Shown: in pieces, positions 1,584 through 47,621 of the stretch
Layout of the letters: each line of letters opens with the position of its first letter
Numbering within the stretch: the first letter of the stretch is position 1
Virus record (IMG/VR): IMGVR_UViG_2660238032_000003
Length of the DNA: 64,000 bases
Source: an uncultured virus (IMG/VR IMGVR_UViG_2660238032_000003)
Lineage: Duplodnaviria; Heunggongvirae; Uroviricota; Caudoviricetes
Direction: 5' to 3' (one strand)
Notes under the pieces: model-generated
The model's input: the letters and a program-made list of their open reading frames with translations, nothing else
The model's database searches: none
Told to the model about the DNA's origin: nothing
Program-made: the position numbers and the translations under genes

Positions 1584-1667
1584 ATGATAAAATTTGATGA
1601 TAAACAGCTTAACAATGTAGTTGAGCAAGATGGAGATAAACACTTCTTTATTGAAACATGGGGTTGA
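1584..1667 (+). pseudogene. miaB: displaced native 5' end of miaB (27-codon stub ending at attL)
   Basis: Translates MIKFDDKQLNNVVEQDGDKHFFIETWG*; joining at GGTTG to 46331 gives [15 protein letters not shown], the canonical MiaB N-terminal motif. Confidence 0.9.
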
Positions 1668-1692
1668 CCGTTAGTAGAAGTAAAGAAGAATT
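1640..1692. other. attL of prophage (core GGTTG 1662-1666)
   Basis: GGTTG shared with 46326-46330; arm gtagaagtaaagaagaatt (1674-1692) is the reverse complement (18/19) of aattcttctttatttctac (46303-46321). Confidence 0.88.
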
Positions 1693-1715
1693 AAAAGACG
1701 TGTAGATGTGCTATG

Positions 1716-3377
1716 TTAAGAGTTGTATATAAATGTGGTAACTAGACCATTTTTAAATTCAAGGCTTATTATCTGCCTATCTTTTACAATAATTTTATTA
1801 ATTAATATATTTACGAATTCTTTTATAAGGTCTCTGCCAACATCTTGTATTAGTGATTTCATATTGATTTTTTCACTAATTAATTTTCTAGAAAATTCAA
1901 GAGTAGCTGCATTTAAAATAAAATTATAATTATGATATGATGAATCTGTTATAGCAGTTTCATCTATTTTTTTTCTTATTTCAGTTATATTATTTTCAAT
2001 CTTTTGCTTTTTTAAAAAATAATCTTTTTTTGACATATCTGCTTCATCAAAAAGATATAGATCATCAAGTTTTTCTAATGCTCTCTCATATTTTTTTAAA
2101 TTTGAACTTAAACTATTTAAGCCAATTGCTCCATTATTTGATTTTTCATTTTTGTTTTGAGGAGTAAATAGATTCTTTGGAGCATATAGAAGTGAAGCTA
2201 ATATATCTTCAATTTCTTTAATTCCTATTACATTATCAAAGCATTTTCCTTTTAAAAGCTCATGCTCAAGTAAATCTAAGCTTAATTTCTTTTTATTAAT
2301 ATTAGATAAATTAATCATATTAGATATAAGTGTAAGTACAAAAGTTCCAACTATATTTTCACTAATGGTCTTTTGTGTACAACCAAGTCCATTATATCTA
2401 GATTTACATACATATAAACTAGGTCGAAAACCATCTTGATTAGCTTTATCCTGTTTTGCATAAAGGTTATTATTACATTCACCACATTTAACAAGACCTG
2501 AAAATATGTGAACTTTTGAATTATCCCTAAATTTAGCATTATTTCTTTTCGCATTTTCATCCATTATTTTATTACATTCTTCCCATAGATCTGTTGGAAT
2601 AATATAAGGATGATTACTTTCTAAAACTATCCATTCATTTTCTTTTTTCTTTTTACCTCTTGCAGGTTCTCGATAGTTATATCTATAAGTTCCTTTATAA
2701 AAAGGATTTCGTATTATATCACTAATTGTTTTTGTGGTCCAGGAACCCTTGCGTTTTGTTTTTATATTATTAGAATTTAACAAGTTTCTAATGTATGAAG
2801 TAGACTTATTTTCTTTATATTCACTAAATATTAGTTCTATAGTATTCTTTTCTTCATCATCAATTACAGGAAACTTAATTTCTTTATCCCATTTGTAACC
2901 TAGTGGAATAGGAGCACCATTCCATAAACCCTTACTGGCTCTATCTAACATAACAGAAGTAACTCTTTCTCCAGTAAGTTTTCTTTCAAGCTCTGCAAAT
3001 ACTAATATTATTTTAAGCATAGCTTCACCCATAGCCGAACTTGTATCAAACTGTTCGTTTTTACTTATAAAAGTACAACCATATTTCTTTAAGTCATCAT
3101 ACATAGAACAAAAATCTAAAAGATTTCTAGATATTCTATCTATTTTCCATACTAATAAGTGTGAAAATTCACCTTCCTTAATCCTTTTAAACATTTCTTG
3201 AAAATCAGGCCTATCTGTATTTTTACCAGAATATCCAGCATCTTGGAATATTTCATAATTATCTATACCAAGTACATACTTTGAATAATTAATCATATCT
3301 TGCTTTTGTAGTGGAAGAGAATCTTTATCTATTTGATGATTAGTAGATACTCTTACATAAATTGCAGATTTTTTCAT
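1716..3377 (-). CDS. large serine recombinase (phage integrase)
   Basis: AIYVRVST catalytic Ser motif, DAGYSG..RP, DRISRN, recombinase domain, zinc ribbon CGEC...C, coiled coil; ATG at 3377 has GGGGGA RBS (ORF track starts at 3419). Confidence 0.95.
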   Translation of the reverse strand: MKKSAIYVRVSTNHQIDKDSLPLQKQDMINYSKYVLGIDNYEIFQDAGYSGKNTDRPDFQEMFKRIKEGEFSHLLVWKIDRISRNLLDFCSMYDDLKKYGCTFISKNEQFDTSSAMGEAMLKIILVFAELERKLTGERVTSVMLDRASKGLWNGAPIPLGYKWDKEIKFPVIDDEEKNTIELIFSEYKENKSTSYIRNLLNSNNIKTKRKGSWTTKTISDIIRNPFYKGTYRYNYREPARGKKKKENEWIVLESNHPYIIPTDLWEECNKIMDENAKRNNAKFRDNSKVHIFSGLVKCGECNNNLYAKQDKANQDGFRPSLYVCKSRYNGLGCTQKTISENIVGTFVLTLISNMINLSNINKKKLSLDLLEHELLKGKCFDNVIGIKEIEDILASLLYAPKNLFTPQNKNEKSNNGAIGLNSLSSNLKKYERALEKLDDLYLFDEADMSKKDYFLKKQKIENNITEIRKKIDETAITDSSYHNYNFILNAATLEFSRKLISEKINMKSLIQDVGRDLIKEFVNILINKIIVKDRQIISLEFKNGLVTTFIYNS

Positions 3378-3452
3378 ATTAAATCCCCCGTATATTTTTA
3401 AAGAGTTATGATATTTCATAACCCTTTAAACTAGAATATTAATTTGTTAATT

Positions 3453-3959
3453 TTAAGCGTCTTTTAGCTTTTCTGAAGCTGATGATATTTCCCCTTTTGA
3501 CTCAGCTTCAAGCTCTAAAGCATATGCTTCAAGTTCTTTTTTCTTGTAATCTTCAAAACTTTCTTTTTTAGTAGCTGCAAGTTCATTAGTATTAGCTAAT
3601 TTAGATAATAAGCTAGCTTTGAATTGTTCAGTAGCTGCTTTTCTTATTTCTGGATCCATTTCAAAAAAAGCTTTTATTATTTCTAATTCAAAATCAGTAG
3701 CACCTTTTTGTTTTACGTATTCATCTAATGAAAATGTATCAGGTTCAATAAACATAGGTTGTGTACCATTACGAAGCCAATCTTCATTAACATTAAATTC
3801 TCTACAAATATCTGCAATTATTCTATCTGTTAGTGATCTTTTACCTTTTTCTATTGATGAAATATGTGAACGTGTCACATTAATTTTTTCACCCAGAGTT
3901 TCTTGACTAATATTGAGAGATTCTCTTAAATTTTTTAGTCTTTCATTCAAATTTATCAC
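3453..3959 (-). CDS. Xre/CI-like HTH prophage repressor
   Basis: N-terminal HTH_3 (RLKNLRESLNISQETLGEKINVTRSHISSIEKG, VNEDWLRNG); upstream of integrase, divergent from early genes. Confidence 0.85.
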   Translation of the reverse strand: MINLNERLKNLRESLNISQETLGEKINVTRSHISSIEKGKRSLTDRIIADICREFNVNEDWLRNGTQPMFIEPDTFSLDEYVKQKGATDFELEIIKAFFEMDPEIRKAATEQFKASLLSKLANTNELAATKKESFEDYKKKELEAYALELEAESKGEISSASEKLKDA

Positions 3960-3984
3960 CTCCTTGAGAAAATAATAACATTAA

Positions 3985-6772: not shown

Positions 6773-7624
6773 ATGAGATTATATGATGATTATAATTATA
6801 GAAATGTATATACGAATAGGATAAAAGAAACAAGAGAAGATGAAATAGAAAACTTAAGAGATAGTAAGAAGTTAAGATACACTTATATGAAAAAAACTAT
6901 AATAAGCGGAAATGTAGTTGAAAGTGAAATATATCCTATATGGAAATGTAGAAGTGACATACCAAGAATTTCAATAGGAGAAAGTAGAGAAGCTCAAAAG
7001 AATTTGAATGATAAAAATGCAAAGAAAAAAATAGTCAGGCTAGTAAATACAAATTTCACTAAAGATGATCTAATGATAACACTATCTTATACAAATAATC
7101 ATTTGCCAAAAGAAGAAGAGGCAAAAAGAGATATTGAAAATTATATAAGAAGATTAAAAAGGCGTAGAAAAAAAGAAGGTCTTCCAGAACTTAAATATTT
7201 GTATGTAATTGAATATGTTAATGATCCAAATGTAAGCAAAAAGATAAGAGTACATCATCATATAATAATTAATAAAATGGATAGAGATATTGCTGAAAGT
7301 GTTTGGAAAAAAGGTAGAACTGATAGTATGAGACTTCAACCTGATGATTTTGGATTAACAGGAATAGCAAAATATGTAGCTAAAGGATTAATCCAAGGTA
7401 GAAGATGGAGCTATAGTAAGAATCTTAAAAAACCAATAATAACTAGAGATAGAACTAAATTAACTAAAAGAAAAGTAGAAAAAATAGCAAAAAGACCTGA
7501 TGAATACCAAGAATTTTTTGAAATAATATACAAAGGAAAATATGAGTATAAAGATTGTGAAGCTTTATATAGCGACAGAGTGACTGGATTTTATCTATAT
7601 GCAAGAATGAAAAAATTGGAGTGA
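6773..7624 (+). CDS. putative HUH-endonuclease (rolling-circle type) replication initiator
   Basis: Motif I (MITLSY), HUH motif II (RVHHHIII), motif III (AKYVAK); replication-gene position. Confidence 0.75.
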   Translation: MRLYDDYNYRNVYTNRIKETREDEIENLRDSKKLRYTYMKKTIISGNVVESEIYPIWKCRSDIPRISIGESREAQKNLNDKNAKKKIVRLVNTNFTKDDLMITLSYTNNHLPKEEEAKRDIENYIRRLKRRRKKEGLPELKYLYVIEYVNDPNVSKKIRVHHHIIINKMDRDIAESVWKKGRTDSMRLQPDDFGLTGIAKYVAKGLIQGRRWSYSKNLKKPIITRDRTKLTKRKVEKIAKRPDEYQEFFEIIYKGKYEYKDCEALYSDRVTGFYLYARMKKLE

Positions 7625-7809
7625 TTTTATTGAAAATAGATTCTTTGAAAGAATTATTAAAAGAAAGCAAGAAGTTAATGCTTTATTCAATGGGAATGAA
7701 GAATGCAACGAATTATACATGTGAAGAGGATTTTAACTTAGAAAATTATACTAGGATACTTGGAAATGCAAGAAAAGAGTTGCTAGAGATAGAAGAAGAG
7801 AATAAGTAA
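7621..7809 (+). CDS. hypothetical phage protein
   Basis: 62-aa ORF overlapping Rep stop (GTGA). Confidence 0.5.
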   Translation: MILLKIDSLKELLKESKKLMLYSMGMKNATNYTCEEDFNLENYTRILGNARKELLEIEEENK

Positions 7810-7848
7810 CAGCTTATACACAATTTTATTAACAAGATTAGGGGGAAT

Positions 7849-8619
7849 ATGAAAATGAGGACAATCTCTATTATAAATTTAAAAGGTGGAGTTGCTAAAA
7901 CTGTATCATCAGTTAACATAAGTCACATTTTAGCAACTACTTATGAAAAAAAGGTTTTATTAATAGATAATGACAAGCAAGGAAATGCAACTAAGATGTT
8001 TAGCTTACATGATGGAGAGGAATTAAGCATAGCGGATATAATGTCTAATCCAGGAATAGATATTGAAGATGTTATAATTCCAACTCAATATAAAAATTTA
8101 GACTTAATTCCAGCAAACATGGGATTATTAAAAGCAAATTTAAATGTAATAAAAGATGAAACTAAAGAGCAGCAAACAATATTAAAAAATGCTTTAGGTC
8201 AAGTTTGTGATAATTATGATTATTGTATAATAGACAACCCACCAGATATAAATATATCTGTAATTAACTCTCTGGTAGCATGTGAAGATGTTTTAATACC
8301 AATAAAAATTGATAAATTTGCTTTTGATGGACTAGAGGAATTAAATGAACAAATAGAAAATGCAAAACAAATAAATCCTAAAATAAAGCTTAAAGGATGT
8401 TTTATAACTCAATATCAAAATAATGATGTTAATAATCAAGGAGAAGAGGTCCTGATTAAAAACAATAAGTATCCTATGTTTAAAACTCATATAAGAAGAA
8501 CACCCAAAGTAGATGAAAGTACATTTGCAAGTTTACCAGTATGTGATTATTCAAAAAGATGTGCAGCTTCTAAAGATTATGTACAACTTGTAGAAGAATA
8601 TTTAGATCTAGAGGTGTGA
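7849..8619 (+). CDS. parA: ParA/Soj-family partition ATPase
   Basis: Deviant Walker A KGGVAKT, LLIDNDKQGNAT, IIDNPP. Confidence 0.92.
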   Translation: MKMRTISIINLKGGVAKTVSSVNISHILATTYEKKVLLIDNDKQGNATKMFSLHDGEELSIADIMSNPGIDIEDVIIPTQYKNLDLIPANMGLLKANLNVIKDETKEQQTILKNALGQVCDNYDYCIIDNPPDINISVINSLVACEDVLIPIKIDKFAFDGLEELNEQIENAKQINPKIKLKGCFITQYQNNDVNNQGEEVLIKNNKYPMFKTHIRRTPKVDESTFASLPVCDYSKRCAASKDYVQLVEEYLDLEV

Positions 8620-8882
8620 TTATGGGAAGAGCAGAAAATAGGAGAATACAAAGGAAAGTTAATAAAAAGATTGGAAAGCAAAGAGTGAATAACATAGTTG
8701 ATGGAATAGACCAGGAATTAATAAATTCTGAAATAGATAGAAAGTGTAAAATATTTCAAAGTATGATAGTTGATTCTGTAGTTGAAGCTATGAAGAGAAA
8801 TGGACTTAGTAATTCTCAAATGAAGAGGATTAGTGATGACATTGAACTTATATTGAGAAAGAAGGTACATGGGGTTGAGTAA
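8616..8882 (+). CDS. hypothetical phage protein
   Basis: 88-aa ORF coupled to parA. Confidence 0.6.
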   Translation: MIMGRAENRRIQRKVNKKIGKQRVNNIVDGIDQELINSEIDRKCKIFQSMIVDSVVEAMKRNGLSNSQMKRISDDIELILRKKVHGVE

Positions 8883-9468
8883 TTTTAAAAGACAATATTT
8901 AAATTCTGATGAACGAAACTTTTATATGATCTGTAAGTCTTTCATTCAAATGATAAATGGTGAGAGGAATTTAAATAATAAAATAACAAATGAGATATGG
9001 ATTGAATGGTCAAGAAAAGGTATGCTTACACCTTCTATGCAAAAGAACTTAAAATTAGTCAGAAGTTATCTTAATAAATTTTGTGATGAACTTGAAGAAA
9101 ATTTGGATCAAAAAGAAAGAGACAAGCTAGAAAAGCAGCTAATAAAGTTTGACTATAGATTGATTGATGATTATACATTAAAAAAGTTATTTAGAGATCT
9201 TGAAGATAGATATAAATATGTTGTTATGGAAAGAGAAAAGTTTATTCCAATAATAGAAGAGGTTGCAGAAATAAATTGCGTTGGATGTACACAAGATTAT
9301 AAGAATTGCATACTATTTAAAGCTTTTGATGATATAAATCTAGAAAGAGTGGATGAAGAGAGTAATTGTCCATATGCTGTAGATTTATCAAAATGTAAGC
9401 CAGAAGAAGTAAAAATGATTGAAAAATTTAAAGAGAAGCTCAAAAGCAAGAATCAATTTAGAAAATAA
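8869..9468 (+). CDS. hypothetical phage protein with C-terminal Cys cluster
   Basis: CVGC...C...CPY motif; in operon. Confidence 0.6.
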   Translation: MGLSNFKRQYLNSDERNFYMICKSFIQMINGERNLNNKITNEIWIEWSRKGMLTPSMQKNLKLVRSYLNKFCDELEENLDQKERDKLEKQLIKFDYRLIDDYTLKKLFRDLEDRYKYVVMEREKFIPIIEEVAEINCVGCTQDYKNCILFKAFDDINLERVDEESNCPYAVDLSKCKPEEVKMIEKFKEKLKSKNQFRK

Positions 9469-9473
9469 TTTTA

Positions 9474-9494
9474 TTGTGTCCGAATCGAACACAA
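9474..9494. promoter_or_regulatory. palindromic parS-like site 1
   Basis: ttgtgtccgaatcgaacacaa, imperfect palindrome directly upstream of parB RBS; 19/21 identical to 34678-34698. Confidence 0.6.
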
Positions 9495-9509
9495 AATAAA
9501 GGAGTTAAT

Positions 9510-10475
9510 ATGGCTAAGTTTAATATGATGGAATTACTTAATAATAATTCTAAGGAAAATATTAATGTTGAAAACAAGAGTCAAAAGAAGTTTAAAACAG
9601 TACCAATTAACATAAATGAGTTAAAACCATCAGATGAAAATTTTTATTCAACAGAGAATGTAGTTGAACTTAAAAATTCAATAGAGTTACTGGGTTTGCA
9701 ACAAAATCTAGTTGTAAAGAAAACAGAAGATGGCTATGAAATAATAGCAGGACACAGGAGATATAAAGCTTTAAAAATGCTTTTTGAAGAAGGAAAGAAG
9801 GACTTTGAATATGTACCTTGCAAAGTTGAGAGTGAAAAAGATGCTTTAAAAGATAAGTTGTTACTTATAATAACTAATTCAACAGCTAGAGAACTTACTG
9901 ATTATGAAAAGACAGTACAAGCTGAAAAATTAAAAGAATTGTTAACTGAATATAAGAAACAAGAAAAGATACCAGGCAGAGTAAGAGAGATAGTTGCAGA
10001 TATATTAAATACCTCTTCATCACAAATAGCTAGAATGGAAGGAATAACAAATAATCTTATTCCAGAATTTAAGGAAGAGTTTAAGGAAGCAAAAGTTAAT
10101 ATATCAGCAGCACATGAATTATCTACACTACCAGAAGAAACTCAGCAAGTAGTTTTTGAAGAATTTAAAGATAAAGGTCAACTATCAATAAAAGATGTTA
10201 GGGCCAAGAAAGAAGAGTTAAAAAAAGAAAGTGTAAGATCTAATGATAAACATATAGAAAAATCAAAGGAAGAGGTAGTTAATTTACCTAGATTTAAAAC
10301 TAATTTTGAAATAGTAAAAGATTTAACAACAGATGAACTTGCTATTTTTATATGTAGTAGGTGTAGCGGTGGAAATGGATATGCTGGATTTTGTGATCTG
10401 GCAATTGAATGTAAAGGAAATAACAAATATGAAATATGTAAAAAGTGGCTTAGAACTCAAGCACAAAATAATTAG
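9510..10475 (+). CDS. parB: ParB/Spo0J-family partition protein
   Basis: GLQQNLVV, YEIIAGHRRYKA Arg patch, HTH; ATG at 9510 follows AAGGAG. Confidence 0.9.
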   Translation: MAKFNMMELLNNNSKENINVENKSQKKFKTVPININELKPSDENFYSTENVVELKNSIELLGLQQNLVVKKTEDGYEIIAGHRRYKALKMLFEEGKKDFEYVPCKVESEKDALKDKLLLIITNSTARELTDYEKTVQAEKLKELLTEYKKQEKIPGRVREIVADILNTSSSQIARMEGITNNLIPEFKEEFKEAKVNISAAHELSTLPEETQQVVFEEFKDKGQLSIKDVRAKKEELKKESVRSNDKHIEKSKEEVVNLPRFKTNFEIVKDLTTDELAIFICSRCSGGNGYAGFCDLAIECKGNNKYEICKKWLRTQAQNN

Positions 10476-14810: not shown

Positions 14811-15344
14811 TTGGAGTGTAATTTTGGAATGAATGTAAATCAAAAAGAGCTTGCAAATATTTTAGGAATCACATCTCGAAGGGTTAGACAATTAAGAGAA
14901 GAAGGTTTCTTTTCATTCGCTGAAAATGGTAAAAAATATTCACTTGAAAAATGTGTTCAGGAGTATATTGAATATAAAGTAAAAGCGGAAACAAATACGG
15001 GTACATCTATAGATAGAGAAAAGGAACAGGCAGAGCATGAACAAATAAAGAAAAATATATCAAAATTGAAGCTTAGAAAATTAAAAAAAGAACTTCATGA
15101 AGCTTCAGATGTTGAATTATTTTTAAGTGAAATGCTAATAAATTTTAGAAACAGAGTATTATCTATTCCAAGTAAGATTGCAGTGCAGATACTTGGAGAA
15201 GAAGATATAAATAGAATAATAGAGATATTGCAAAAAGAGATGTATGAAACATTAGAAGAACTATCTGAATATAATCCAGATAAGATTAATAGAGAGAAAA
15301 ACTATGATTCTGATGAAGATTATGAGGAGGATGATGAAGATTAA
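14811..15344 (+). CDS. terS: terminase small subunit (Nu1-like)
   Basis: N-terminal wHTH VNQKELANILGITSRRVRQL then coiled coil; precedes terL. Confidence 0.85.
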   Translation: MECNFGMNVNQKELANILGITSRRVRQLREEGFFSFAENGKKYSLEKCVQEYIEYKVKAETNTGTSIDREKEQAEHEQIKKNISKLKLRKLKKELHEASDVELFLSEMLINFRNRVLSIPSKIAVQILGEEDINRIIEILQKEMYETLEELSEYNPDKINREKNYDSDEDYEEDDED

Positions 15345-15363
15345 ATAAAAATAAGGTGATGAT

Positions 15364-17208
15364 ATGGGAAATGAAAAGATACGTTCAAGAGAAAAGACAA
15401 GTAATTTATTCAGTAGAGTATTAAAACGTACTCTTGCAAAGCCTGAACAACTAACTGTAAGTCAATGGGCAGAAAAATATAGAGTACTTGATGAATCAAG
15501 TTCAATTCCTGGTAAATGGTCAAATGATGTTACACCATATTTAATTGAAATCATGGATAGTTTTAATGATCCTTACATTGAACACATAAATTTTTGTAAA
15601 CCAACTCAAGTTGGTGGAACAGAAGCATTATTAAATGAAATTGGGTGGATAATAACACAAAATCCTAGTCCTACAATGATTGTTTATCCTACTGATGACC
15701 TTGCAAAAGATATATCTAATGATAAATTGAAGCCAGCATTTTTAAAAAGTCCTTCTCTTAAAGAAAGATTTTTAGAAAATCAATCTAAAGAACTTTCTTT
15801 AAAATTTAAAGGAATGAATTTATATCTAAGAGGTGCTAATTCTCCAAGTAAACTTGCATCTAAAGCTATTAAGTTTTTGATGTTTGATGAAATAGATAAG
15901 ATGAGTGGAGCATCTAAGAAAGAAGCTTCACCATATGATCTAGCAATAGAACGTACAAAAACATTTAAACATTCTAAAAAAATATATTCATGTTCTACTC
16001 CAACTCTAAAAAATAATTATGTTTGGAGAATACATGAAGCAGCAGAAGAACAGAGACACTATTTTGTTCCATGTCCACATTGTGGTGAAATGATAGAACT
16101 TAAATGGAGTCAGGTTATTTTTGAGAAGGATAAAGAAAGTAAATTAACTATATCTGAAAGAGCTGCAACAGCTAAATATATATGTCAAGAATGTGGATGT
16201 TTGATTGAAGATAGAGAAAAGCCTAAGATGTTAAGACTTGGACAATGGAAGAGCATAAATAAAAAATGTGTAGGAAAGCCTAAAACAGTGTCATTTTGGC
16301 TTAATTCTTTATACAGTATATTTGTAACATGGGAAGATATGGCCAAAAAGTTTTTGGAATCTCGAGATGATCCTGACCAACTACAAAATTTTATAAATTC
16401 ATGGCTGGCAGAACCTTGGGAAGATACAAAATTAAAAACAAATGCTGATTTAGTATTAGATAGACAAACTGAATATGAAGAGTTCATTGTACCATCGTGG
16501 GCAAAAATGCTTACAGGTGGAGTAGATGTTCAAGAAAATTGCTTGTATTGGAGTATAAGAGCTTGGGGTAATTTTATAACAAGTCAAAATATATGTCATG
16601 GACAGGCTTTTTCTTTTGCAGAAATAGAAAAAATAATGAATTTAGAATATTGTAAAAAAGATGGAACAAAAATGGTTGTTAATTTAACATTAATGGATTC
16701 AGGATATGATTCAGATTCAGTTTATGATTTTGCATCAAGTAATTCCGAGTGGTGTTTACCAGTTAAGGGTGCATCTAATCCACAACTATCACATTATAAG
16801 CTTTCAAAAGTAAATAAATCAGAATCTAAAGCATATGGAATGAACTTAGTTATTGTTGATGGTGGTAAATATAAAGATATGATTGCTGGACGTATGAAAA
16901 AAGATAATGGTAAGGGAGCGTGGATGGTTTACAAAGGATGTGACAGAGAATATGCAGAACAGGTTACAGCTGAACATAAAGTAAATGTTAAAAGTGGAAA
17001 TAGAACCGTACAACAATGGGTATTAAAGAAATCACATGCAGATAATCATTATTTAGATACAGAAGTTTATGCATTAGCTGCAGCTGATGTATTAGGAGTA
17101 AGAACATTGCATTTAGAAGATAATGAAGAAGTACATGAAAAATCAAAACAAGATGAACAATATGCACCAGAAGAGGGTTGGATTAAAGAAAATGAAAAAT
17201 GGATATAA
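15364..17208 (+). CDS. terL: terminase large subunit (lambda GpA family)
   Basis: KPTQVGGTE Walker A variant, MFDEID Walker B, STPT, CPHCG zinc finger, GVDVQ nuclease, NHYLDTEVYA. Confidence 0.95.
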   Translation: MGNEKIRSREKTSNLFSRVLKRTLAKPEQLTVSQWAEKYRVLDESSSIPGKWSNDVTPYLIEIMDSFNDPYIEHINFCKPTQVGGTEALLNEIGWIITQNPSPTMIVYPTDDLAKDISNDKLKPAFLKSPSLKERFLENQSKELSLKFKGMNLYLRGANSPSKLASKAIKFLMFDEIDKMSGASKKEASPYDLAIERTKTFKHSKKIYSCSTPTLKNNYVWRIHEAAEEQRHYFVPCPHCGEMIELKWSQVIFEKDKESKLTISERAATAKYICQECGCLIEDREKPKMLRLGQWKSINKKCVGKPKTVSFWLNSLYSIFVTWEDMAKKFLESRDDPDQLQNFINSWLAEPWEDTKLKTNADLVLDRQTEYEEFIVPSWAKMLTGGVDVQENCLYWSIRAWGNFITSQNICHGQAFSFAEIEKIMNLEYCKKDGTKMVVNLTLMDSGYDSDSVYDFASSNSEWCLPVKGASNPQLSHYKLSKVNKSESKAYGMNLVIVDGGKYKDMIAGRMKKDNGKGAWMVYKGCDREYAEQVTAEHKVNVKSGNRTVQQWVLKKSHADNHYLDTEVYALAAADVLGVRTLHLEDNEEVHEKSKQDEQYAPEEGWIKENEKWI

Positions 17209-17223
17209 AGGCAGGTTATTAAT

Positions 17224-17448
17224 ATGGATGAAAACAATCTTTCAGCAAAAGAAATGCTTGCTGAAGTAGATAAGGCTATATATAAAGTTTTAGTTGGTGG
17301 ACAATCTTATAAGATTGGTTCAAGACAACTTACAAGAGCTGATTTGAAAATGCTTAAGGAAATGAAAGATGATCTTATGGCACAAGTTGCACAAAATGAA
17401 AGTAATCTATTAGATGATACGTATGTAGCAGTATTTTCAGGAAGGTAG
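17224..17448 (+). CDS. head completion protein (gpW-like)
   Basis: GQSYKIGSRQLTRADL motif; between terL and portal. Confidence 0.75.
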   Translation: MDENNLSAKEMLAEVDKAIYKVLVGGQSYKIGSRQLTRADLKMLKEMKDDLMAQVAQNESNLLDDTYVAVFSGR

Positions 17449-19567: not shown

Positions 19568-19568
19568 A

Positions 19569-21068: not shown

Positions 21069-21080
21069 GAGGAATATTAA

Positions 21081-21413: not shown

Positions 21414-21421
21414 GTGATAAT

Positions 21422-23146: not shown

Positions 23147-23160
23147 AAGGTGGTGTTTAA

Positions 23161-24606: not shown

Positions 24607-24609
24607 TAT

Positions 24610-25740: not shown

Positions 25741-25744
25741 TGCC

Positions 25745-28196: not shown

Positions 28197-28200
28197 TTTT

Positions 28201-29785: not shown

Positions 29786-29800
29786 TAAGGGTGAAAAAAT

Positions 29801-32556: not shown

Positions 32557-32570
32557 AAAGGGAGATAAAA

Positions 32571-33167
32571 GTGGAAAAAGTAAGAGTGCAGTTACTAGAT
32601 GAAAAAACAGGAGCAGTAGTAAAGGAAGTAGATGTATTAACATCAGCAGATTGCGTTACATTTTCGGATGGCCAAACATTCCAACAAAAATTAAATAATG
32701 GAAGTTTAAAAGGTGACAAGGGTGACCAAGGTATACAAGGTCCTAAGGGAGATAAAGGAAATACTGGGGATAAAGGTGCAACTGGTCCGCAAGGTGCTAA
32801 AGGCGTATCTATGAGACTTAAAGGAGCTTGGAGTTCAAGTACAGCATATGTTAATGATGGAAGCTATGTAGACTTAGTTACTTCTGGAGGAAATACGTAT
32901 GCTTGTAAAGCATCTAACACTAATGCTGTAGTTACAGATACATCAAAATGGGAACTTATTTCTAGTAAAGGAACAACAGGTGAAAGAGGGGCAACTGGAG
33001 CACAAGGACCAAAGGGTGATGCTGGAGCTAAGGGAGCCACGGGAGATAGAGGACCTCAAGGAGTACAAGGACCCAAAGGTGATAAAGGGGATAGTGGTGA
33101 AAATGTTAGAGTTGGTGCAACTTATGCCAATAGTACACAAGTAAAATTATTTTTTAAAACTGTTTAG
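32571..33167 (+). CDS. collagen-like tail fibre protein
   Basis: Two Gly-X-Y tracts flanking a small Trp/Tyr module. Confidence 0.85.
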   Translation: MEKVRVQLLDEKTGAVVKEVDVLTSADCVTFSDGQTFQQKLNNGSLKGDKGDQGIQGPKGDKGNTGDKGATGPQGAKGVSMRLKGAWSSSTAYVNDGSYVDLVTSGGNTYACKASNTNAVVTDTSKWELISSKGTTGERGATGAQGPKGDAGAKGATGDRGPQGVQGPKGDKGDSGENVRVGATYANSTQVKLFFKTV

Positions 33168-33180
33168 GAGGTGGATATAA

Positions 33181-33984
33181 GTGTCAATAAAAAATATAGA
33201 AATTCAAGATAGTGATGGGAATATCTATTATCCTCATACTAATGCATCCGTAGTTAAGAATGGATCTACTACAGTTGCTGAACAAATGAAAGAAATTGCG
33301 AACAAAGTAGATAATATTAAAATTGCAGATGGAACTACAACAACCAAGGGAATAGTTAAATTAAATAATGCTGTTAATAGTACAAGTCAAGCAGAAGCAG
33401 CCACCCCATTAGCTGTAAAAACTGCTATGGATAAAGCAAATGAGGCTTTTCAGTATGCCAGTAATGGGAAAAGTCTTATTGCTGGCAAGGTAGGAAATGT
33501 TACAGGAAACAATACACATGCGGAGATAGCAAATAGAATACAAACAGATAAGAATACAGCAGCTAGTAATCTTAATAGTAAAGGTGTAAGTGCTAATGGA
33601 AATGAAGCTTTAGCTAGTTTAGTAGGAAAGATAGCTAACATTACTTTAGCTGGTATGGGAGGAAAAAGATTCACCTTTGGAAATACTAACTTTGATGGCA
33701 CTACTGATATACGTTTTCAAAGAGTAAATAAAGATTTTCAACCAGAGTCAGGATATTCAAATACTTACTATGTAACTATAACATTAAATTTTAAACCTTC
33801 ATATGGATTGGTTTATGCTAAGACTTCATCATCAGCTGGTTTTAATGTTTCAACTTTAGTAAATTATAATGCAGTATGGACAGGAACAGGTTTACTCCAA
33901 CCAATAATATCTGGTAATACTATAAAAATTCCATTTTCTGATAAATATGTAACTTCAAATGTAACATATATATTTTTTGAATAA
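33181..33984 (+). CDS. tail fibre / receptor-binding protein
   Basis: Fibre repeat TTTKGIVKLNNAVNSTSQAEAATPLAVK; beta-rich C-terminus. Confidence 0.8.
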   Translation: MSIKNIEIQDSDGNIYYPHTNASVVKNGSTTVAEQMKEIANKVDNIKIADGTTTTKGIVKLNNAVNSTSQAEAATPLAVKTAMDKANEAFQYASNGKSLIAGKVGNVTGNNTHAEIANRIQTDKNTAASNLNSKGVSANGNEALASLVGKIANITLAGMGGKRFTFGNTNFDGTTDIRFQRVNKDFQPESGYSNTYYVTITLNFKPSYGLVYAKTSSSAGFNVSTLVNYNAVWTGTGLLQPIISGNTIKIPFSDKYVTSNVTYIFFE

Positions 33985-34007
33985 ATAACTTAGGAGGTAA
34001 TTAAAAT

Positions 34008-34316
34008 ATGAAAAATTTAATAGTTTATGATAGTACAGGAAATGCTTTCTTTGTTCAAGAAGGCACTTTTTATGAACCACAAGGAGAAATAAAAGCACTT
34101 CAAGCTGATATTCCAGATAACAAACTACTTAAAGGTGTAGATATTAAAACAGGACAACCAATACTAGAGGATATACCAAAATCACAAATTGAACTACTAC
34201 AAGAAGAACTTGCACAAAATACAAAAGAAATAGCTAAGAAAGATTTAGCTATAGAACAACTACAAAAAGATTTAGCAGATTTAACAAAACAAATAGCTTT
34301 AGGAGGTAATGTATAA
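34008..34316 (+). CDS. putative tail fibre chaperone
   Basis: LIVYDSTG start, C-terminal coiled coil; between fibre and XkdX. Confidence 0.55.
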   Translation: MKNLIVYDSTGNAFFVQEGTFYEPQGEIKALQADIPDNKLLKGVDIKTGQPILEDIPKSQIELLQEELAQNTKEIAKKDLAIEQLQKDLADLTKQIALGGNV

Positions 34317-36009: not shown

Positions 36010-36300
36010 ATGGAATATACAAATTTAGTACAGTTTATACCTGAAAGTTTATTTATAGTTATTGCTGGCATATATGTAGTTGGAATATTTCTTAAAAAGT
36101 TAGAGAGTATACAAGATAAATATATAACAAGTATATTAATGCTATTTGGTATTACTTTTGCAATATTATTAAGTATAATTAACACAGAATATAGAGTTAC
36201 ATTAGATGTTATTGTGAATGGTACATTACAAGGTGTGTTATGCTGGGGAGTAGCTGTTGGTATTAACCAAACGGCTAAACAATTAAATAAGCAAGAATAG
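36010..36300 (+). CDS. phage holin
   Basis: Three TM segments, QGVLCWGVAVGINQTAKQ; precedes endolysin. Confidence 0.85.
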   Translation: MEYTNLVQFIPESLFIVIAGIYVVGIFLKKLESIQDKYITSILMLFGITFAILLSIINTEYRVTLDVIVNGTLQGVLCWGVAVGINQTAKQLNKQE

Positions 36301-36316
36301 TTTTAGGTAGCAATAA

Positions 36317-38245
36317 ATGCTACCTTTTTATGATTTAAATGGAGATTATAAAAGGAGAGATTTTGTGAATAGATTAAATTATGAAGAAATACCTTTAGAT
36401 GGGGTTATAGAAAGTCCTATAGATTTGAGAGATTATAATTACAAGGATTTTTGCAGCAATAATGATAAGGATTTACCGAATGAATTTGAAATAAATTATC
36501 AATTTGAACCTAGAAATCAAGCTAATACTTCTACTTGTGCATTTCAATCAGTAACAGCTCTTATAGAAATAATAAAAAATACAAATGAATATTTATCAGA
36601 AGGATTTTTAAATGCTATGAGAGATGAATATGGTTACCAATTAGAAAAAGGTGCAGTAACAAGAGAAATTATGAAATTAGCTTGTGAGAGTGGAATAATT
36701 CCTAAAATAGATTTTCCTAATTTAGAGGATTATCCAAAGATAAGTGAGTTATTTGATTCTTTAAATAACAAAAATGAATTAATAGAAAAAGCAAAAAGTT
36801 TAAAATGTCAATCATATGTGAGAGTTGATTTAGAAGATGTTCCGATATATTTATACAATGAAAAGAAACCTTTAGTTATAACAACGGTATTATATGATAG
36901 TTTTTATAAAGTAAATCATCCAGGTACAGATGGAATTGTAGAATATCCAAGTGAAGGTAAAAAATGTGGTCGTCATGCGATGGTTATTGTAGGTTATAAA
37001 TATAAAGATAATAAATTATATTTAAAAATACAAAATAGTTGGGGAAAATATTGGTGTTTGAATGGTTATTGCTATGTAAATATAGAAGACACAAAAATGA
37101 TTGATGAAGTATGGGGATTTACTGATATACCTAAGAAAGTTATTATAACTAAATATAAAATAGGTTGGAATAAAGATAAAATAATTGATAAGTGGCTCTA
37201 TTCCGAAGATGGTGAACATTTAATAGAAAACGGATGGAAAGAAATTAAAGATGAATGGTACTATTTTAAAAATTCATTTACTATTAATGGAGATTGGATT
37301 AAAGATAATGGACATTGGTACTTTCTACAATCAGGTTCTTGTAAAATGTTAAAAAATGATTGGTTATACTGGAATAACAAATGGTATAGGTTTGCACAAG
37401 ATGGGAAAATGATAACTGAATGGTATCAAAATGAGAAGGGAGAATGGTTCTATTTAGATATAGATAATGGATATGCATATACTGGGTGGGTATTTATACA
37501 TGGTAAATATTATTACTTTAATGAAAATTGTATAATGCAAACAGGTTGGATTAAAATTAATGAAGAATGGTTTTATTTAGATTCAAGTGGAGCAATGAAA
37601 ACTGGTTGGTTAAATGATAATGGAACATGGTATTACCTAGAAGAACAAAGTAATGGTCATATGGGTAAATGTTATATGGATTGTGCTACAACAATTAATG
37701 CAAAGCAATATTCTTTTGATAAAAATGGTCACTTAATAGAAGAAAACTTAGTAAGCGAAAAATGTGCTAGATTTATTGGAAGTTGGGAAGGATTTTATGA
37801 AAAAGCCTATGCTGATCCTTATTATGGTGAAAGTATTAAAGATTATTGGACAATAGGATATGGCACTTGTTATTGTTCGATTCCAGAAGCATTTCCAGAT
37901 GATTTAGAATCTACTTGTACAAAAGAACAAGCTTTAAATTGGTTAAAACAAGAGGCAAGCAAATATTCTGAAAAATTAAAGAATGACTTAGATAATAAAG
38001 GTGTATCTTTAAATAGTAATCAATTTGATGCATTAATAAGTTTTGCATATAACTGTGGAATACAATCATTGTTTGGATCTACATTATATAATTATATTTG
38101 TAGTGGTGGAAGAGATTCATCAAAAATAAAAGAATACTTTAGAATGTGGAATAAAGCAAATAAAGAATATTCAGATGGATTAGATAGAAGAAGAATTAGT
38201 GAATCTAATTTATTTATTGATGGAAATTATTTAGGAAATGTATAA
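36317..38245 (+). CDS. endolysin: papain-like C1 peptidase + cell-wall-binding repeats + GH24 lysozyme
   Basis: RNQ..STC, HAMVIVGY, QNSWG; repeated GW..x..WYY units; WEG..AYAD..WTIGYG, QFDALISFAYNCG, GLDRRR.E. Confidence 0.88.
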   Translation: MLPFYDLNGDYKRRDFVNRLNYEEIPLDGVIESPIDLRDYNYKDFCSNNDKDLPNEFEINYQFEPRNQANTSTCAFQSVTALIEIIKNTNEYLSEGFLNAMRDEYGYQLEKGAVTREIMKLACESGIIPKIDFPNLEDYPKISELFDSLNNKNELIEKAKSLKCQSYVRVDLEDVPIYLYNEKKPLVITTVLYDSFYKVNHPGTDGIVEYPSEGKKCGRHAMVIVGYKYKDNKLYLKIQNSWGKYWCLNGYCYVNIEDTKMIDEVWGFTDIPKKVIITKYKIGWNKDKIIDKWLYSEDGEHLIENGWKEIKDEWYYFKNSFTINGDWIKDNGHWYFLQSGSCKMLKNDWLYWNNKWYRFAQDGKMITEWYQNEKGEWFYLDIDNGYAYTGWVFIHGKYYYFNENCIMQTGWIKINEEWFYLDSSGAMKTGWLNDNGTWYYLEEQSNGHMGKCYMDCATTINAKQYSFDKNGHLIEENLVSEKCARFIGSWEGFYEKAYADPYYGESIKDYWTIGYGTCYCSIPEAFPDDLESTCTKEQALNWLKQEASKYSEKLKNDLDNKGVSLNSNQFDALISFAYNCGIQSLFGSTLYNYICSGGRDSSKIKEYFRMWNKANKEYSDGLDRRRISESNLFIDGNYLGNV

Positions 38246-41731: not shown

Positions 41732-42427
41732 ATGGCTAAAGATTATTTGAAATTTAGAAATGCAGTAAAGAAAGATAATAACTTATCTTTAGAAGAATCT
41801 TATATGTTAGAGCTTATCTTTGATTATTATAATGTATCTATAGGATATGCTTACCCATCTTATGAAGTACTCATGTCTGATTTAAAAACTAAAAGAAGAG
41901 CTAAAGTTTCTAAATTATTAAAATCTTTAGTTAAAAAAGGTTATATCTCAATTACTAAAGCTGGTAAGAAAAATACTTATAAATTACTAAAATATTTATT
42001 CTTAGATAATAAACACAATGATTCAAACGGTAATAAACATATAGATGGTCAAATGGATTTTTCAGAAGTAACTGAAGAAGTAAAAGAAATTATAAGTCTT
42101 GGTTTTTCAGCAAAGCAAGCAAAGAGTTTATTTAAAATTGCTAATGAGAAAATAGAGAAAGTTATAAGTGCATTTAATTATGCTGCATCTAAAGGTGCTA
42201 AGAATTTATACTCTTATACTATAGCAGCATTAAAGGGTAATTATGCAAAGATTAAAACAAATAAAGAAGAGGTTGTTAAAAAACTTAAATTTAATAACTT
42301 TGAGCCAAGATCATACGATTATGATTCTTTAGAAAATAAATTATTAGGCTGGGAAAATGGTCCTGAGTATATAGATGAAGAATCAAAATCAACTTTTGAT
42401 TTAAAAGGAATGTTGGCATTGATTTAA
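41732..42427 (+). CDS. putative replication initiator (N-terminal wHTH, DnaB/DnaD-like C-terminal tail)
   Basis: GYAYPSYEVL...LKSLVKKGYI...NTY wHTH; FNNFEPRSYDYDSLENKLLGW resembles clostridial DnaD/DnaB C-termini. Confidence 0.7.
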   Translation: MAKDYLKFRNAVKKDNNLSLEESYMLELIFDYYNVSIGYAYPSYEVLMSDLKTKRRAKVSKLLKSLVKKGYISITKAGKKNTYKLLKYLFLDNKHNDSNGNKHIDGQMDFSEVTEEVKEIISLGFSAKQAKSLFKIANEKIEKVISAFNYAASKGAKNLYSYTIAALKGNYAKIKTNKEEVVKKLKFNNFEPRSYDYDSLENKLLGWENGPEYIDEESKSTFDLKGMLALI

Positions 42428-42452
42428 TTAAATAAGCTAGGAGGGATAATAC

Positions 42453-42680
42453 ATGAGATTGTATGTTGAAAAAGAAGAATGTAATAAATTACAAGATGTT
42501 GAAGATAACATAGATATTATAAGAAATATTGTTTGTTATATGTCTGTAAATTGTAAATCTATGATAGTTGGTCATGATATTCAAGGTGAATATAAAGAAA
42601 TAGAACATTATCTAAAAATAGCTTCTCAAAAAACCCAAAAATTAAAACTGGCTATGGAAAAAGAATTAGAAAGAGTTTGA
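42453..42680 (+). CDS. hypothetical protein of mobilisation module
   Basis: 75-aa ORF with GGAGGG RBS. Confidence 0.6.
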   Translation: MRLYVEKEECNKLQDVEDNIDIIRNIVCYMSVNCKSMIVGHDIQGEYKEIEHYLKIASQKTQKLKLAMEKELERV

Positions 42681-42793
42681 AAATATGGATATTGAAATTT
42701 TAAACAAATAAAAAAGACAGCAACTTTAAGCCACTACCTATACAGCAATATTAGTATAACTTAAAGTTGCTCTAAAATCAATAGGGGGCATTT

Positions 42794-44353
42794 ATGGATA
42801 TAATTGAACAACTTAAGATTTTTACAATAGCTACTGGTGGTATAGCTGCTAGTGGAGAAATATTGTCTTATTTTATTAGAAATAAAGCTAATAGGGTAGG
42901 AAGGCTTGCAACAGGATATATTGAATCAAAAGATAAACTAGAAAATATTTTGGGAAACACAGGATTAATATTAAGTAAAGATATACAATTAAAAGAACAG
43001 TTTGACTTTGAAGGTAGTGTTACTATAGCACCTACTGGAAGTGGTAAAACAAGTTCTTTTTTCTTTCCTAATTTACTTAGTAATAATATAAAAGGAAGTA
43101 TAATAGTAACAGATCCTAAAGAAGAGCTGTTTAAATTAACTTCAAAATACCAGGAAAGGGTTTGTGGTAGAAAGGTACTTAAATTTTCTCCGTTATCTCC
43201 ACAAACAAGTGAGAAATATAATTTATTGACTAGTTGCAAAGATAATAGTGAGGTTGTAGAGTTATCTTCAACTCTTCTTTTTAATGGTGCTTTGTCAATT
43301 GAACTAAGTACAGGAAAGAAAACAGGGGGAGTAGAATGGATACAGATGGCTGAACCACTTTTAGCAGCAGCTTTACTTTATGCTAAGAATTTGGAATATC
43401 CATTTAATAATATAGAGTTTGCATTTAAGTTAATTATTAATCTAGATACAGAACAGTTAGATTCTTTATTTAATGGTAGCAATAATATAGATTGTATAAA
43501 CCAATGGAATATATTTAAAACTGTTACTGGAGCTGATAGAACAGAAGGTAGTATTAAAATAACATTAGCAAGTAATATGAAATTATTTATAGATAACAGA
43601 ATAAATCAAGTTGGAGTTGAAAATACATTTGATATAGAAAAATTTAGAGAAGAACCTACAATATTATATGTTTGCTATCCTGAGAATAAAGCACCTTATT
43701 TGGCACCATTTATAGCACCGTTCTTCAGCCAAGCATTAAACAAGCTAATTGACAGTTATACAGAAAATAATCTTCCTATAACTATGCTATTCGATGAATT
43801 TGGTAATATAGGTATGTTAAATAATATGAGCGTAAATGTAGCAACTATAAGAAGTCGTAAAATAAGTATGAATATTTGTCTACAATCTATAACTCAGCTA
43901 TTTCAAACCTATGGAGTAGCTAATGGAAAAGCAATTCTAAATAATCTTAAGACTAAAATAATCCTTCCTGGATTATCTGATTCAGATACTACAAATTATT
44001 TATCCGATTTATGTGGAAATAAAGAAATAACTATATGTAATACAAATGTTAATAAGCAAAATATTACACACAGTTATTCTAAAACTAAAATCAAGCTATT
44101 TGAAAATAGTGAGTTAAGGTGTCTTGAGGATAACCAAGTATTAATTATAACAAGTAATAAACAACCAATATTAAGTATACAGGATAGATATTATACAAAC
44201 TCTGTATATACCAGCAATATATATAAAGCTACTTCTAATGTTAACCATAATAATACTAAAAAAATAGATATTGATAGTGAGATTGAGAAGCTAAAGCTAG
44301 AAATTATAAAAGATGATGTTGTAAAAGATGTATCAGAAGAATTATTCAACTGA
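42794..44353 (+). CDS. type IV coupling protein (VirD4/TraG family)
   Basis: Walker A APTGSGKT, VTDPKEE, YNLL, Walker B MLFDEFGNIG, RSR.I...LQSITQL..YG. Confidence 0.9.
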   Translation: MDIIEQLKIFTIATGGIAASGEILSYFIRNKANRVGRLATGYIESKDKLENILGNTGLILSKDIQLKEQFDFEGSVTIAPTGSGKTSSFFFPNLLSNNIKGSIIVTDPKEELFKLTSKYQERVCGRKVLKFSPLSPQTSEKYNLLTSCKDNSEVVELSSTLLFNGALSIELSTGKKTGGVEWIQMAEPLLAAALLYAKNLEYPFNNIEFAFKLIINLDTEQLDSLFNGSNNIDCINQWNIFKTVTGADRTEGSIKITLASNMKLFIDNRINQVGVENTFDIEKFREEPTILYVCYPENKAPYLAPFIAPFFSQALNKLIDSYTENNLPITMLFDEFGNIGMLNNMSVNVATIRSRKISMNICLQSITQLFQTYGVANGKAILNNLKTKIILPGLSDSDTTNYLSDLCGNKEITICNTNVNKQNITHSYSKTKIKLFENSELRCLEDNQVLIITSNKQPILSIQDRYYTNSVYTSNIYKATSNVNHNNTKKIDIDSEIEKLKLEIIKDDVVKDVSEELFN

Positions 44354-45278
44354 AGAGGATAAAGGATTATTAGAAAAATATAATAAGAAAGTTACTGGTG
44401 CTAGAGCTAATGTATATTTTTGTGTATTTAGAGTAGGTAAAAAGATAAAAGATTTAGGTCAGGTTGAAGCCTTCCAAAAGCATATGGAAAGAGAAATGGA
44501 TGTGATTAATGCAGATCCAAGACAAAAAGATAAAAATAGAGTATTAATAGGCAACAACAATATAGTTGAAAATGTTAAAAATCATGTTTATGGAATTAAG
44601 ATAAGAAGTAATGCTAATATAGCAACAGACCTTGTACTAACTACTGGAAATGGATTTTATAATAGTTTACCACCACAAGAAAGGGAAACATGGATACAGG
44701 AAAATGTTAAGTTTCTTAAGGAGAATTTTGGTGATAACTGCATTTATGCTACTTTACACATGGATGAAACCACACCACATTTACACGCTTTAATAGTTCC
44801 AAAATTTTATAACAATGAAAAAAATAGATATGAATTATCTTCAAACAAATATTTTGATGGAATTGAAAAAATGAGAGCCTGGCAGGACAAATATTCAAAT
44901 CATATGAATAAAAAATTTAATAATCTTATTAGGGGAGTAAGAGGTTCTAAGGCAAAGCATATGGATATAAAAACTTATTACTCTCTAATAACGAAAAAAC
45001 TTGATCTAATAGATGATAGGCAAGTATTAGCATATGCTAAACATAGTTATTTATTAGAGAAGAGAGTTAAAGCTTTGGAATACACATTGATGGAAATAGA
45101 AAAAAATGAAGATACAAAGGATCTAGTAGAGAAAATAAATAAATTAGATAAAAATAACAAGATTTATAAAGAGACAATAAGAACAATTACTAAAAAATAT
45201 GGCTTAAAAGAAAAAGATATTTTAGATATAGTAAGTAAGATTGAAAATAAGAATGATAAAAAAGAGAGGGAGAGATAG
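44328..45278 (+). CDS. mobV: MOBV (Mob/Pre) relaxase
   Basis: HMERE motif I, IRSNA, HMDETTPHLH (HxDExxPHxH), QD, RGVRGSKAKH. Confidence 0.9.
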   Translation: MYQKNYSTEEDKGLLEKYNKKVTGARANVYFCVFRVGKKIKDLGQVEAFQKHMEREMDVINADPRQKDKNRVLIGNNNIVENVKNHVYGIKIRSNANIATDLVLTTGNGFYNSLPPQERETWIQENVKFLKENFGDNCIYATLHMDETTPHLHALIVPKFYNNEKNRYELSSNKYFDGIEKMRAWQDKYSNHMNKKFNNLIRGVRGSKAKHMDIKTYYSLITKKLDLIDDRQVLAYAKHSYLLEKRVKALEYTLMEIEKNEDTKDLVEKINKLDKNNKIYKETIRTITKKYGLKEKDILDIVSKIENKNDKKERER

Positions 45279-45814: not shown

Positions 45815-45815
45815 T

Positions 45816-45965
45816 ATGATTTATATTGATGATATTATTACTGACGGTAATTTTAAAGAATGGATTGTTGAAAGCTATATAATAGATTATGATAATGTCA
45901 CAGGGTACGTTTGCAGAAATATTAAAAGTAATGAATATAAAATATTTGAAGAGGTTGAATTTTAA
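45816..45965 (+). CDS. small hypothetical protein (49 aa)
   Basis: Coupled to previous stop; followed by hairpin ggaagg/ccttcc. Confidence 0.45.
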   Translation: MIYIDDIITDGNFKEWIVESYIIDYDNVTGYVCRNIKSNEYKIFEEVEF

Positions 45966-46170
45966 TAAATACTAATTTTGTTAGGGAAGGTTAACGCCTT
46001 CCTTATTTTTATAATTATAATTGGAATACTAGGACTAATATATTACATATTTTAAAAAATGGTTAAGTTAAAAAGATTGAGAAATAAAAACATACTTACT
46101 ACGGAATTTTCACATTATGTAATATCTACATAATTTAAAGTAGACATAATATATAGATAAAAGTATTAAG

Positions 46171-46247
46171 TTGCTATTTTACAAAACTTTATTTTATACT
46201 TTAAGTTATGATATAATGTAGAAGTATAATTTTTAAAACTTGGAGGA
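46171..46247 (+). promoter_or_regulatory. element-supplied promoter and RBS for miaB
   Basis: TTGCTA-18bp-TATACT, TGnTATAAT (46209-46217), GGAGGA; all inside attR. Confidence 0.55.
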
Positions 46248-46253
46248 ATACTA

Positions 46254-47621
46254 ATGAATTTTGATATAGACGCTTTAAAAGAAAATAAAATAGATAAAAA
46301 AGAATTCTTCTTTATTTCTACCTTTGGTTGTCAAATGAATGAAGAAGATTCTGAGAAGCTTTCAGGAATGCTTAAGTCGCAAGGCTATGAAGAAACAGAA
46401 AATAGAGATGAAGCTTCAATTGTAATTTTCAATACATGTTGTGTAAGAGAAAATGCTGAAAATAAGGTTTTTGGAAATCTTGGAAGATTAAAAAATCAAA
46501 AAGAGAAGAATCCTAATTTAATAATAGCTCTATGTGGTTGTATGATGCAACAAAAGGGGATGGCAGATGAAATTTTAAGTAGATTCCCTTACGTTGACAT
46601 AATATTTGGAACTCATAATGCATACAAGTTCCCAGAATATTTGCATAGAGTTCAAGTTGAAGGCGTTCAAGTTAAAGAGATTTTTGATAAAGAAACTGAA
46701 ATTGTAGAAGGTGTTCCAATAGACAGAAAAAGCAATGTAAAAGCTTTTGTTACTATAATGTATGGATGCAATAATTTTTGTACATATTGTGTAGTTCCTT
46801 ATGTTAGAGGGAGAGAAAGAAGTAGAAGACCAGAAGATATAGAAAATGAAATAAAAGAATTGGTTTCTAATGGATATAAAGAAATTACTTTACTTGGACA
46901 AAACGTAAATTCTTATGGTAAAGGTCTTGAAGAAGAAATTACTTTTGCACAACTTTTAAGAAGAATTAATGAAATAGATGGACTTGAAAGATTAAGATTT
47001 ATGACATCTCATCCTAAAGATTTAACTTTAGATGTGGTTTATGCTATAAGAGATTGCGATAAGCTTTGTGAACAAATACATTTACCTGTACAAAGTGGTA
47101 GTAATGAAATATTGCAAAAAATGAATAGACATTATAATAAAGAACAATATTTAGAATTAGCTAAAAAAATAAGAGAAGAAATCCCAGATGTAACATTCTC
47201 AACAGATATAATAGTTGGATTCCCAGGTGAAACTGAAGAAGATTTTGAGGAAACAATTAACTTAGTAAAAGAAGTTAGATATGATGCAGCATTTACTTTC
47301 ATATATTCAAGAAGAAATCACACACCCGCAGATAAAATGGAAGATCAAATTCCAGATGATGTTAAACATGATAGATTTAATAGACTTGTAGCTGCTGTTA
47401 ATGAAGGTATTGTTGTTGGAAATAAAGCTGCTGAAGGAAAAATATATGAAGTTTTAGTTGAGGGAACTAGTAAGAATAATGAAAACAAATTAACTGGTAG
47501 AACAAGAAATGCTAAGCTTGTAAACTTTGATGGTTGTAAAGAAATGATAGGAAAACTTGTTAAAGTTAAAATAATTGAAGCTAAATCATTTTCTTTAGTA
47601 GGAGAAGTTGTAGAGCAGTAG
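46254..47621 (+). CDS. miaB: tRNA-2-methylthio-N6-dimethylallyladenosine synthase MiaB (chimeric: first 25 codons element-derived)
   Basis: [20 protein letters not shown], radical-[12 protein letters not shown]-terminal TRAM domain. Confidence 0.97.
46303..46350. other. attR of prophage (core GGTTG 46326-46330)
   Basis: See attL; crossover falls in the Gly-Cys codons of miaB. Confidence 0.88.

Follow-up and report, generated by a model that had tools for sequence, protein, structure and literature searches.

Several mobile elements have been described that insert into the 5' end of a translation-related gene and supply a substitute for the part they cut off. According to its published description, the Burkholderia phage JC1 uses a serine recombinase to integrate in the 5' end of rimO and provides an in-frame ATG (PMC9144972), whereas islands and prophages at dusA are reported to replace the 5' end of this gene, including the first β-strand, by an element-borne promoter and N-terminus (PMC4482086), with expression from the element shown for IMEVchUSA3 (10.1101/2021.06.18.448947). 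For the integrative conjugative elements SXT/R391, a new promoter plus a new N-terminus are supplied to prfC, as cited in the latter work (10.1101/2021.06.18.448947). Here, we analysed a stretch of 64,000 nucleotides from the uncultured Caudoviricetes record IMGVR_UViG_2660238032_000003 (in the following, the window), in which a serine-integrase prophage of 44,664 bp is inserted at the dinucleotide TG in the codon for the first cluster-ligand Cys of the housekeeping gene miaB. As at rimO, dusA and prfC, the insertion lies in the 5' coding part of its target, the old 5' end is left behind at the left attachment site (attL), and the element supplies an in-frame start, a ribosome-binding site (RBS) and a promoter motif.

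The concept of an element-borne 5'-end replacement is already published for rimO, dusA and prfC, and miaB is an added target. JC1, as far as its description goes, resembles the window prophage in its serine recombinase, in targeting the 5' end of a methylthiotransferase gene and in a phage-borne ATG that restores the frame; it differs in that the target is rimO, the host belongs to the Proteobacteria, the overlap has 18 bp, the ATG lies 15 bp upstream and the crossover precedes the conserved N-terminal residues. In the window prophage, by contrast, the cut falls in the ligand Cys codon itself and about 25 codons including a conserved motif have to be supplied. The dusA elements, from what is reported of them, likewise replace the 5' end of a tRNA-modification gene by their own promoter and N-terminus, but belong to another integrase family, use another target and have no symmetric serine-type attP arm that must encode protein, while SXT/R391 are conjugative elements residing in a release-factor gene. 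The integrases of both the dusA elements and SXT/R391 are of the tyrosine type.

We consider it very probable that the window contains a temperate myophage with its crossover at the TG of the miaB Cys codon and with a cassette that rebuilds the full-length gene, lysogeny being neutral for the host. The features of the two junctions are as follows:

1469..1477, + strand: extended -10 box TGnTATAAT (motif only), candidate native miaB promoter
1569..1573, + strand: RBS GGAGG (motif) of the native miaB start
1584..1667, + strand: orphaned native miaB 5' end, 27 codons followed by TGA, equal to residues 1-27 of database protein P0003
1639..1692, no strand: attL, with host B arm, core GGTTG at 1662-1666, crossover TG at 1665-1666 and phage P' arm at 1667-1692
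1716..3419, - strand: large serine integrase with Resolvase, Recombinase and Zn-ribbon domains, likely start at 3377 (553 aa)
45982..46005, + strand: terminator-like hairpin upstream of the cassette (1 found, 0.0 in shuffles; z -2.8)
46209..46217, + strand: extended -10 box TGnTATAAT (motif only) of the element-borne cassette
46242..46246, + strand: RBS GGAGG (motif) of the element-borne start
46254..46328, + strand: replacement 5' coding sequence of 25 codons borne by the element, with the P arm as its final 26 bases
46254..47621, + strand: miaB of the lysogen (P0001), 455 aa with UPF0004, radical SAM and TRAM domains (TIGR01574)
46303..46356, no strand: right attachment site (attR), with P arm at 46303-46328, crossover TG at 46329-46330 and host B' arm with a zinc-ribbon-domain-like (ZD-like) motif shifted by 5 bp

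At the left junction, the reading frame at 1584-1667 starts with MIKFDD, runs to FFIETWG and ends in TGA; at the right one, the frame at 46254-47621 begins with MNFDID and continues as a MiaB of 455 aa. When the outer sides were joined in silico, as upon excision, a single open frame of 457 aa resulted. The core GGTTG (5 bp) is common to both junctions (1662-1666 and 46326-46330), and the window alone resolves the crossover only to within these bases. Since in two related lysogens (G252 and G285) TG are the sole bases shared by both junctions, the crossover is pinned to TG. The prophage of a large serine recombinase (LSR) and the crossover in the Cys codon, both assigned at first pass from the letters alone, are supported. 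The stop directly at the left junction is incidental, because most relatives read TG-T at this point and their frame runs on for some codons. In four contig sets aligned to 1000-3600, neither a loose end nor a joint was visible at 1666, a result which, as contigs drop rare variants, says nothing on expression or excision.

The inner sides of the junctions form an inverted repeat around TG with 21 of 26 positions matching (12 matches, 1 mismatch, 6 matches, 4 mismatches, 3 matches), which includes the 18/19 repeat noted at first pass. Such symmetry is reached at 2 of 63,946 positions of the window (mean 7.6), and a search of the window found the 19-mer arm without mismatch only at 1674-1692 and 46303-46321. 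Across 13 pairs of sites, symmetry averaged 15.5/26 for attP versus 5.3/26 for attB. The att model put forward for LSRs comprises a symmetric attP with distal ZD motifs and an attB in which these motifs are shifted 5 bp inward (PMC3783163, as far as consulted here); in line with it for one of the two host arms, B' fits the distal motif of P' at 8/9 positions with a 5-bp shift and at 2/9 without. The integrase itself scored above the cut-offs for PF00239, PF07508 and PF13408 and carries a YVRVST motif, whose S25 is invariant in 12 aligned relatives; database forms of 553 aa and a purine-rich RBS before the second Met support a start at 3377.

The interrupted gene is a true miaB: its product reaches 565.8 bits against TIGR01574 (cut-off 355.3), has a TRAM domain and aligns to the solved MiaB structure 7mjz with an E value of 1e-108. 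Cys26 opens a CX35CX33C motif (C26, C62, C96), which corresponds to the UPF0004 cluster motif as given in PMC5352715 and agrees with the earlier view of the interrupted Cys as ligand of the auxiliary cluster; the second Cys motif is CX3CX2C (C172/C176/C179). On the opposite strand, 7-16 kb past miaB, the genes miaA (isopentenyl pyrophosphate transferase), mutL and mutS are located at 54503-63972, so that the genes for the two steps of ms2i6A37 synthesis lie close together.

The frame predicted for the excised state equals the database protein P0003 residue for residue. As P0003 occurs on 109 contigs, uninterrupted hosts begin with MIKFDD, and further uninterrupted alleles with this start are P0004 (28 contigs), P0005 (28), P0007 (16) and P0008 (10). 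For this species, these alleles confirm the expectation that a non-lysogen starts with MIKFDD and not with MNFDID. Among 15 listed of the 63 members of the MiaB cluster, five read MIKFDD...IETWG, nine have phage-type starts ending in ISTFG or IQTFG, and one (P0014) combines an MNFNID start with the host-type IETWG. Most of the members that carry a name in the MiaB and integrase clusters belong to Clostridium botulinum, which by these names is the host. The nearest genome (G001) is itself a lysogen, with an MIKFDD start adjoining a related integrase 45.7 kb from miaB. At a further locus (L066), an integrase about 52% identical to that of the window occupies the same host site next to the same MIKFDD start. 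This attB in miaB is common to several phage lineages.

On the native and the element side, the same extended -10 box and GGAGG precede the start codon. An in-frame start with RBS was found on all 14 attR sides tested (0.7-3.4% per shuffled locus), and the extended -10 TGnTATAAT in 12/16 cassettes, compared to 1.6-3.8% in shuffles. All 15 P arms encode the motif [IL]xT[FWY]G without a stop, whereas a mirrored P' would do so in none of the 15 cases. Accordingly, two proposals made at first pass hold, namely that the attP arm doubles as coding sequence and that the element brings an in-frame start for miaB. Uncut attP-like sites carrying the cassette were present in the viral loci L055 (19/26 symmetry) and L083 (17/26); the cassette travels with the phage. 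Transcription of the cassette and an active MiaB product are predicted. The further proposal, a takeover of miaB expression by the element, needs revision; it draws on promoter and RBS motifs, and beyond the replacement there is no sign of a regulatory takeover. A scanner for -35/-10 promoters gave 5 hits versus 4.0 by chance at 45900-46400 and 12 versus 6.8 at 1150-1900, missing the extended -10 boxes.

The native extended -10 box at 1469 points toward the integrase end at 1716. Antisense transcription from the native promoter into the integrase, likewise proposed at first pass, would be geometrically possible, because no terminator was found between the two; the search covered 1150-1900, and no significant fold was detected at 1660-1780. 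A strong hairpin at 1360-1420 (z -4.9) lies upstream of the native promoter box and may end upstream transcription. Directly upstream of the cassette, the window has a variable cargo slot (46151-46164), seen also in L039 and L055. In the provirus record G002, this slot holds a gene for an ATPase-like protein of 686 aa that is missing from the window and is defence-like by look only, and L055 has a gene 47% identical to it in the same slot.

Among the 384 genomes of the order that were scored, 17 contain the integrase family, a further 17 genomes being unscored. Of the 15 carriers that were fetched, 13 had a miaB 5' piece after the integrase; in G034 none was seen within the stretch taken, and in G078 the integrase sits elsewhere, 2.2 Mb from an uninterrupted miaB. 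The same layout recurs in 15 attL/attR pairs, nine within one record and six across contigs, counting the window, phage phiCT19406C, G066 and G025, while G123 and G008 were without an attR side. Further away, a miaB motif lay within 3 kb at 14 of 65 additional viral loci (24 of the 65 had fewer than 150 bases downstream), and the miaB site was occupied at 4/9 genome loci and at 8/18 of the closest viral loci (7 without downstream DNA). With only part of the distant loci at miaB, the wider integrase family uses other sites too. In FP_Brigit (41%), whose end lies in a coding gene, no cassette was seen. Two search patterns proved too strict: a degenerate one for the P arm had no hit among viral contigs, and one for the junction had none in G001. 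The P' pattern matched 2/130 genus genomes. In more distant loci (L091, L093, L097, L098, L108, L109, L046 and L048), 1-3 kb of cargo separates the integrase from attL in miaB.

A close counterpart is the Clostridium tetani phage phiCT19406C (NC_029006), whose integrase is 60% identical and which has the same miaB codon as target and the same cassette layout, but differs in its morphogenesis genes. It is reported to be inducible by ultraviolet light as circular DNA (PMC5553647); the main text of that report names neither miaB nor a replacement (0 occurrences). In a supplementary table of Durrant et al. (PMC10083194), UPF0004/methylthiotransferase targets account for 6/1069 LSR entries versus 0/908 random ones; miaB is not named in eight files of this work or in the main text of its preprint (0 occurrences), and the rows covered mention no replacement cassette. 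A literature search, outside of which most subscription journals lay, found no paper naming miaB as phage target.

Taken together, the temperate myophage sits, as the sequence shows, at TG in the codon for MiaB's first cluster-ligand Cys, integrated probably by its large serine integrase. As suggested by the 5-bp ZD shift, the invariant coding stretch Q-M-N-E-E-D following the Cys probably serves as host-side recognition motif, which would keep the site stable across Clostridia. Since MiaB would lose its promoter and first β-strand on integration, the phage carries beside attP an extended -10 box, an RBS and some 25 codons as a cassette that rebuilds the full-length gene, from which expression is predicted. 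The last nine of these codons coincide with the P arm and depart from the attP symmetry just where they encode the MiaB motif I-x-T-aromatic-G. The cassette is homologous to host miaB 5' ends and is probably exchanged with them by recombination. The predicted outcome would be a neutral lysogeny that keeps ms2i6A37 synthesis, neither a takeover nor a switch.

Several points weigh against this explanation. The attP symmetry drops to 3/26 in G303, an outlier, and to 10/26 in G299, and the host B arm fits the distal motif at 7/9 positions unshifted and 3/9 shifted, while the textbook attB model predicts otherwise. A perfect extended -10 box is missing from 4/16 cassettes. Moreover, no directionality factor was identified, small open reading frames having been listed without a search aimed at such a factor. 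The att pairs and cassette loci are kin, so that the counts given above overstate their independence. Finally, expression of the cassette, tRNA modification in the lysogen and excision of this prophage are predictions from the sequence.

An alternative option would be a prophage acting as regulatory switch, similar to skin or SPβ, in which miaB would be expressed less, or at another time, upon integration and as before upon excision. Indeed, promoter and 5' untranslated region differ between the integrated and the excised state, and at dusA the element-borne signals are described as weaker than the native ones (10.1101/2021.06.18.448947). At miaB, however, the frame is fully restored, both sides offer the same extended -10 and GGAGG, and the element has kept its head, tail and lysis genes. 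Elements that keep such genes differ from domesticated switches, and we regard a switch as unlikely.

Even less probable is that a separate mobilisable element, stacked at this site and encoding the coupling protein and MobV, makes up the right end and brought the cassette. The module of rep, type IV coupling protein and MobV genes at 41.7-45.3 kb does lie just inside attR, but the window has no internal att arm, on which ground the stacked element was rejected; a single match with three mismatches, at 28441 in a tail gene, is within chance. In addition, no mobilisation genes are annotated in phiCT19406C, which does have the cassette, and the P and P' arms of the window mirror each other.

A reversed assignment, with MNFDID as native start of the host and MIKFDD brought by the element, is hardly credible. 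G018, a genome in which this integrase family was not matched and in which the host genes lie directly upstream, does have a cassette-like start, and P0014 is alike. Nevertheless, the MIKFDD alleles listed above are uninterrupted, MIKFDD stands at the left junction of lysogens with integrases 100, 95, 72-73 and 52% identical, and G018 is another species (740/858 identity in the upstream gene). P0003 refutes the reversal for the present state of the species, and only for a more ancient state would it be tenable. That the cassette is neutral host DNA from imprecise excision under no selection can practically be dismissed: phiCT19406C and G084 do carry near-copies of the resident host's promoter region, but most pairs share at most 8-20 bp in one stretch, and yet frame, RBS and motif are kept in all tested.

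As to the origin of the cassette in the neutral, gene-rebuilding myophage favoured here, the prophage-free relative G018 (a draft of 110 contigs) is instructive. Its codons 1-21 are identical to the phage cassette at 63/63 positions and codons 22-25 at 5/12, compared to 459/480 in the miaB body and 740/858 in the neighbouring gene; the 63/63 identity is not extreme against the rate of the miaB body, but extreme against that of the neighbouring gene. The first-pass annotation had seen the replacement as mimicry of the host motif, a view which has to be amended, as the cassette is a homologous miaB 5' end that serves as native start in G018 and P0014. Furthermore, phiCT19406C contains about 190 bp and G084 78 bp of near-copy of the resident host's promoter region.

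Two kinds of start, a short one with KYYIETWG and a long cassette-like one, occur at 47 loci with a host gene directly upstream, and on a quick tree of 36 loci with full MiaB bodies the start type changes at least 4-5 times. Eight of the 47 uninterrupted loci match the P-type distal motif at 10-11 of 11 bases. These data fit a cassette exchange by recombination between phage and host in both directions. A tentative and bolder idea, which we hold possible but somewhat short of even odds, is that miaB phages shuttle promoter/N-terminus cassettes which were repeatedly fixed as permanent miaB 5' end in prophage-free Clostridium lineages. The data would also agree with capture in the host-to-phage direction only, or with a long ancestral start that became shorter on several occasions. 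If the idea were true, the start of a core translation gene would be a phage-circulated mosaic, and phages would rewrite promoter and start of a core tRNA enzyme.

With this locus, miaB joins the few translation-related genes (prfC, dusA, rimO) that have an element-swapped 5' end; the locus is a clean example of a single sequence serving as recombinase arm and as protein code, without overturning a known mechanism. With a target motif this conserved, the integrase clade may have a broad host reach without disrupting its target.

The remaining gene content was assigned as follows:

3453..3959, - strand: helix-turn-helix (HTH) repressor-like gene
6773..10475, + strand: ParA and ParB-like genes with a replication initiator, reminiscent of phage-plasmids
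14811..34316, + strand: head, packaging and contractile tail genes (terminases, lambda-type portal, protease, capsid, sheath, tube, tape measure, baseplate, fibres)
36010..38245, + strand: holin and endolysin
41732..45278, + strand: Rep-like HTH protein, VirD4-like coupling protein and MobV relaxase, a cargo module

All modules of a temperate tailed phage (integrase/repressor, head, tail, lysis) lie between the att sites. The module of rep, VirD4-like and MobV genes (41732-45814) is part of an otherwise complete prophage and is about 96% identical in G002; judged by these genes, the phage could possibly be mobilised by conjugation in addition. The endolysin gene at 36317-38245 encodes 642 aa, in which choline-binding repeats are combined with a papain-like and a phage lysozyme domain. 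Between the tail-fibre genes and the holin, a tyrosine recombinase is encoded at 34713-35729, which might rearrange the fibre genes.

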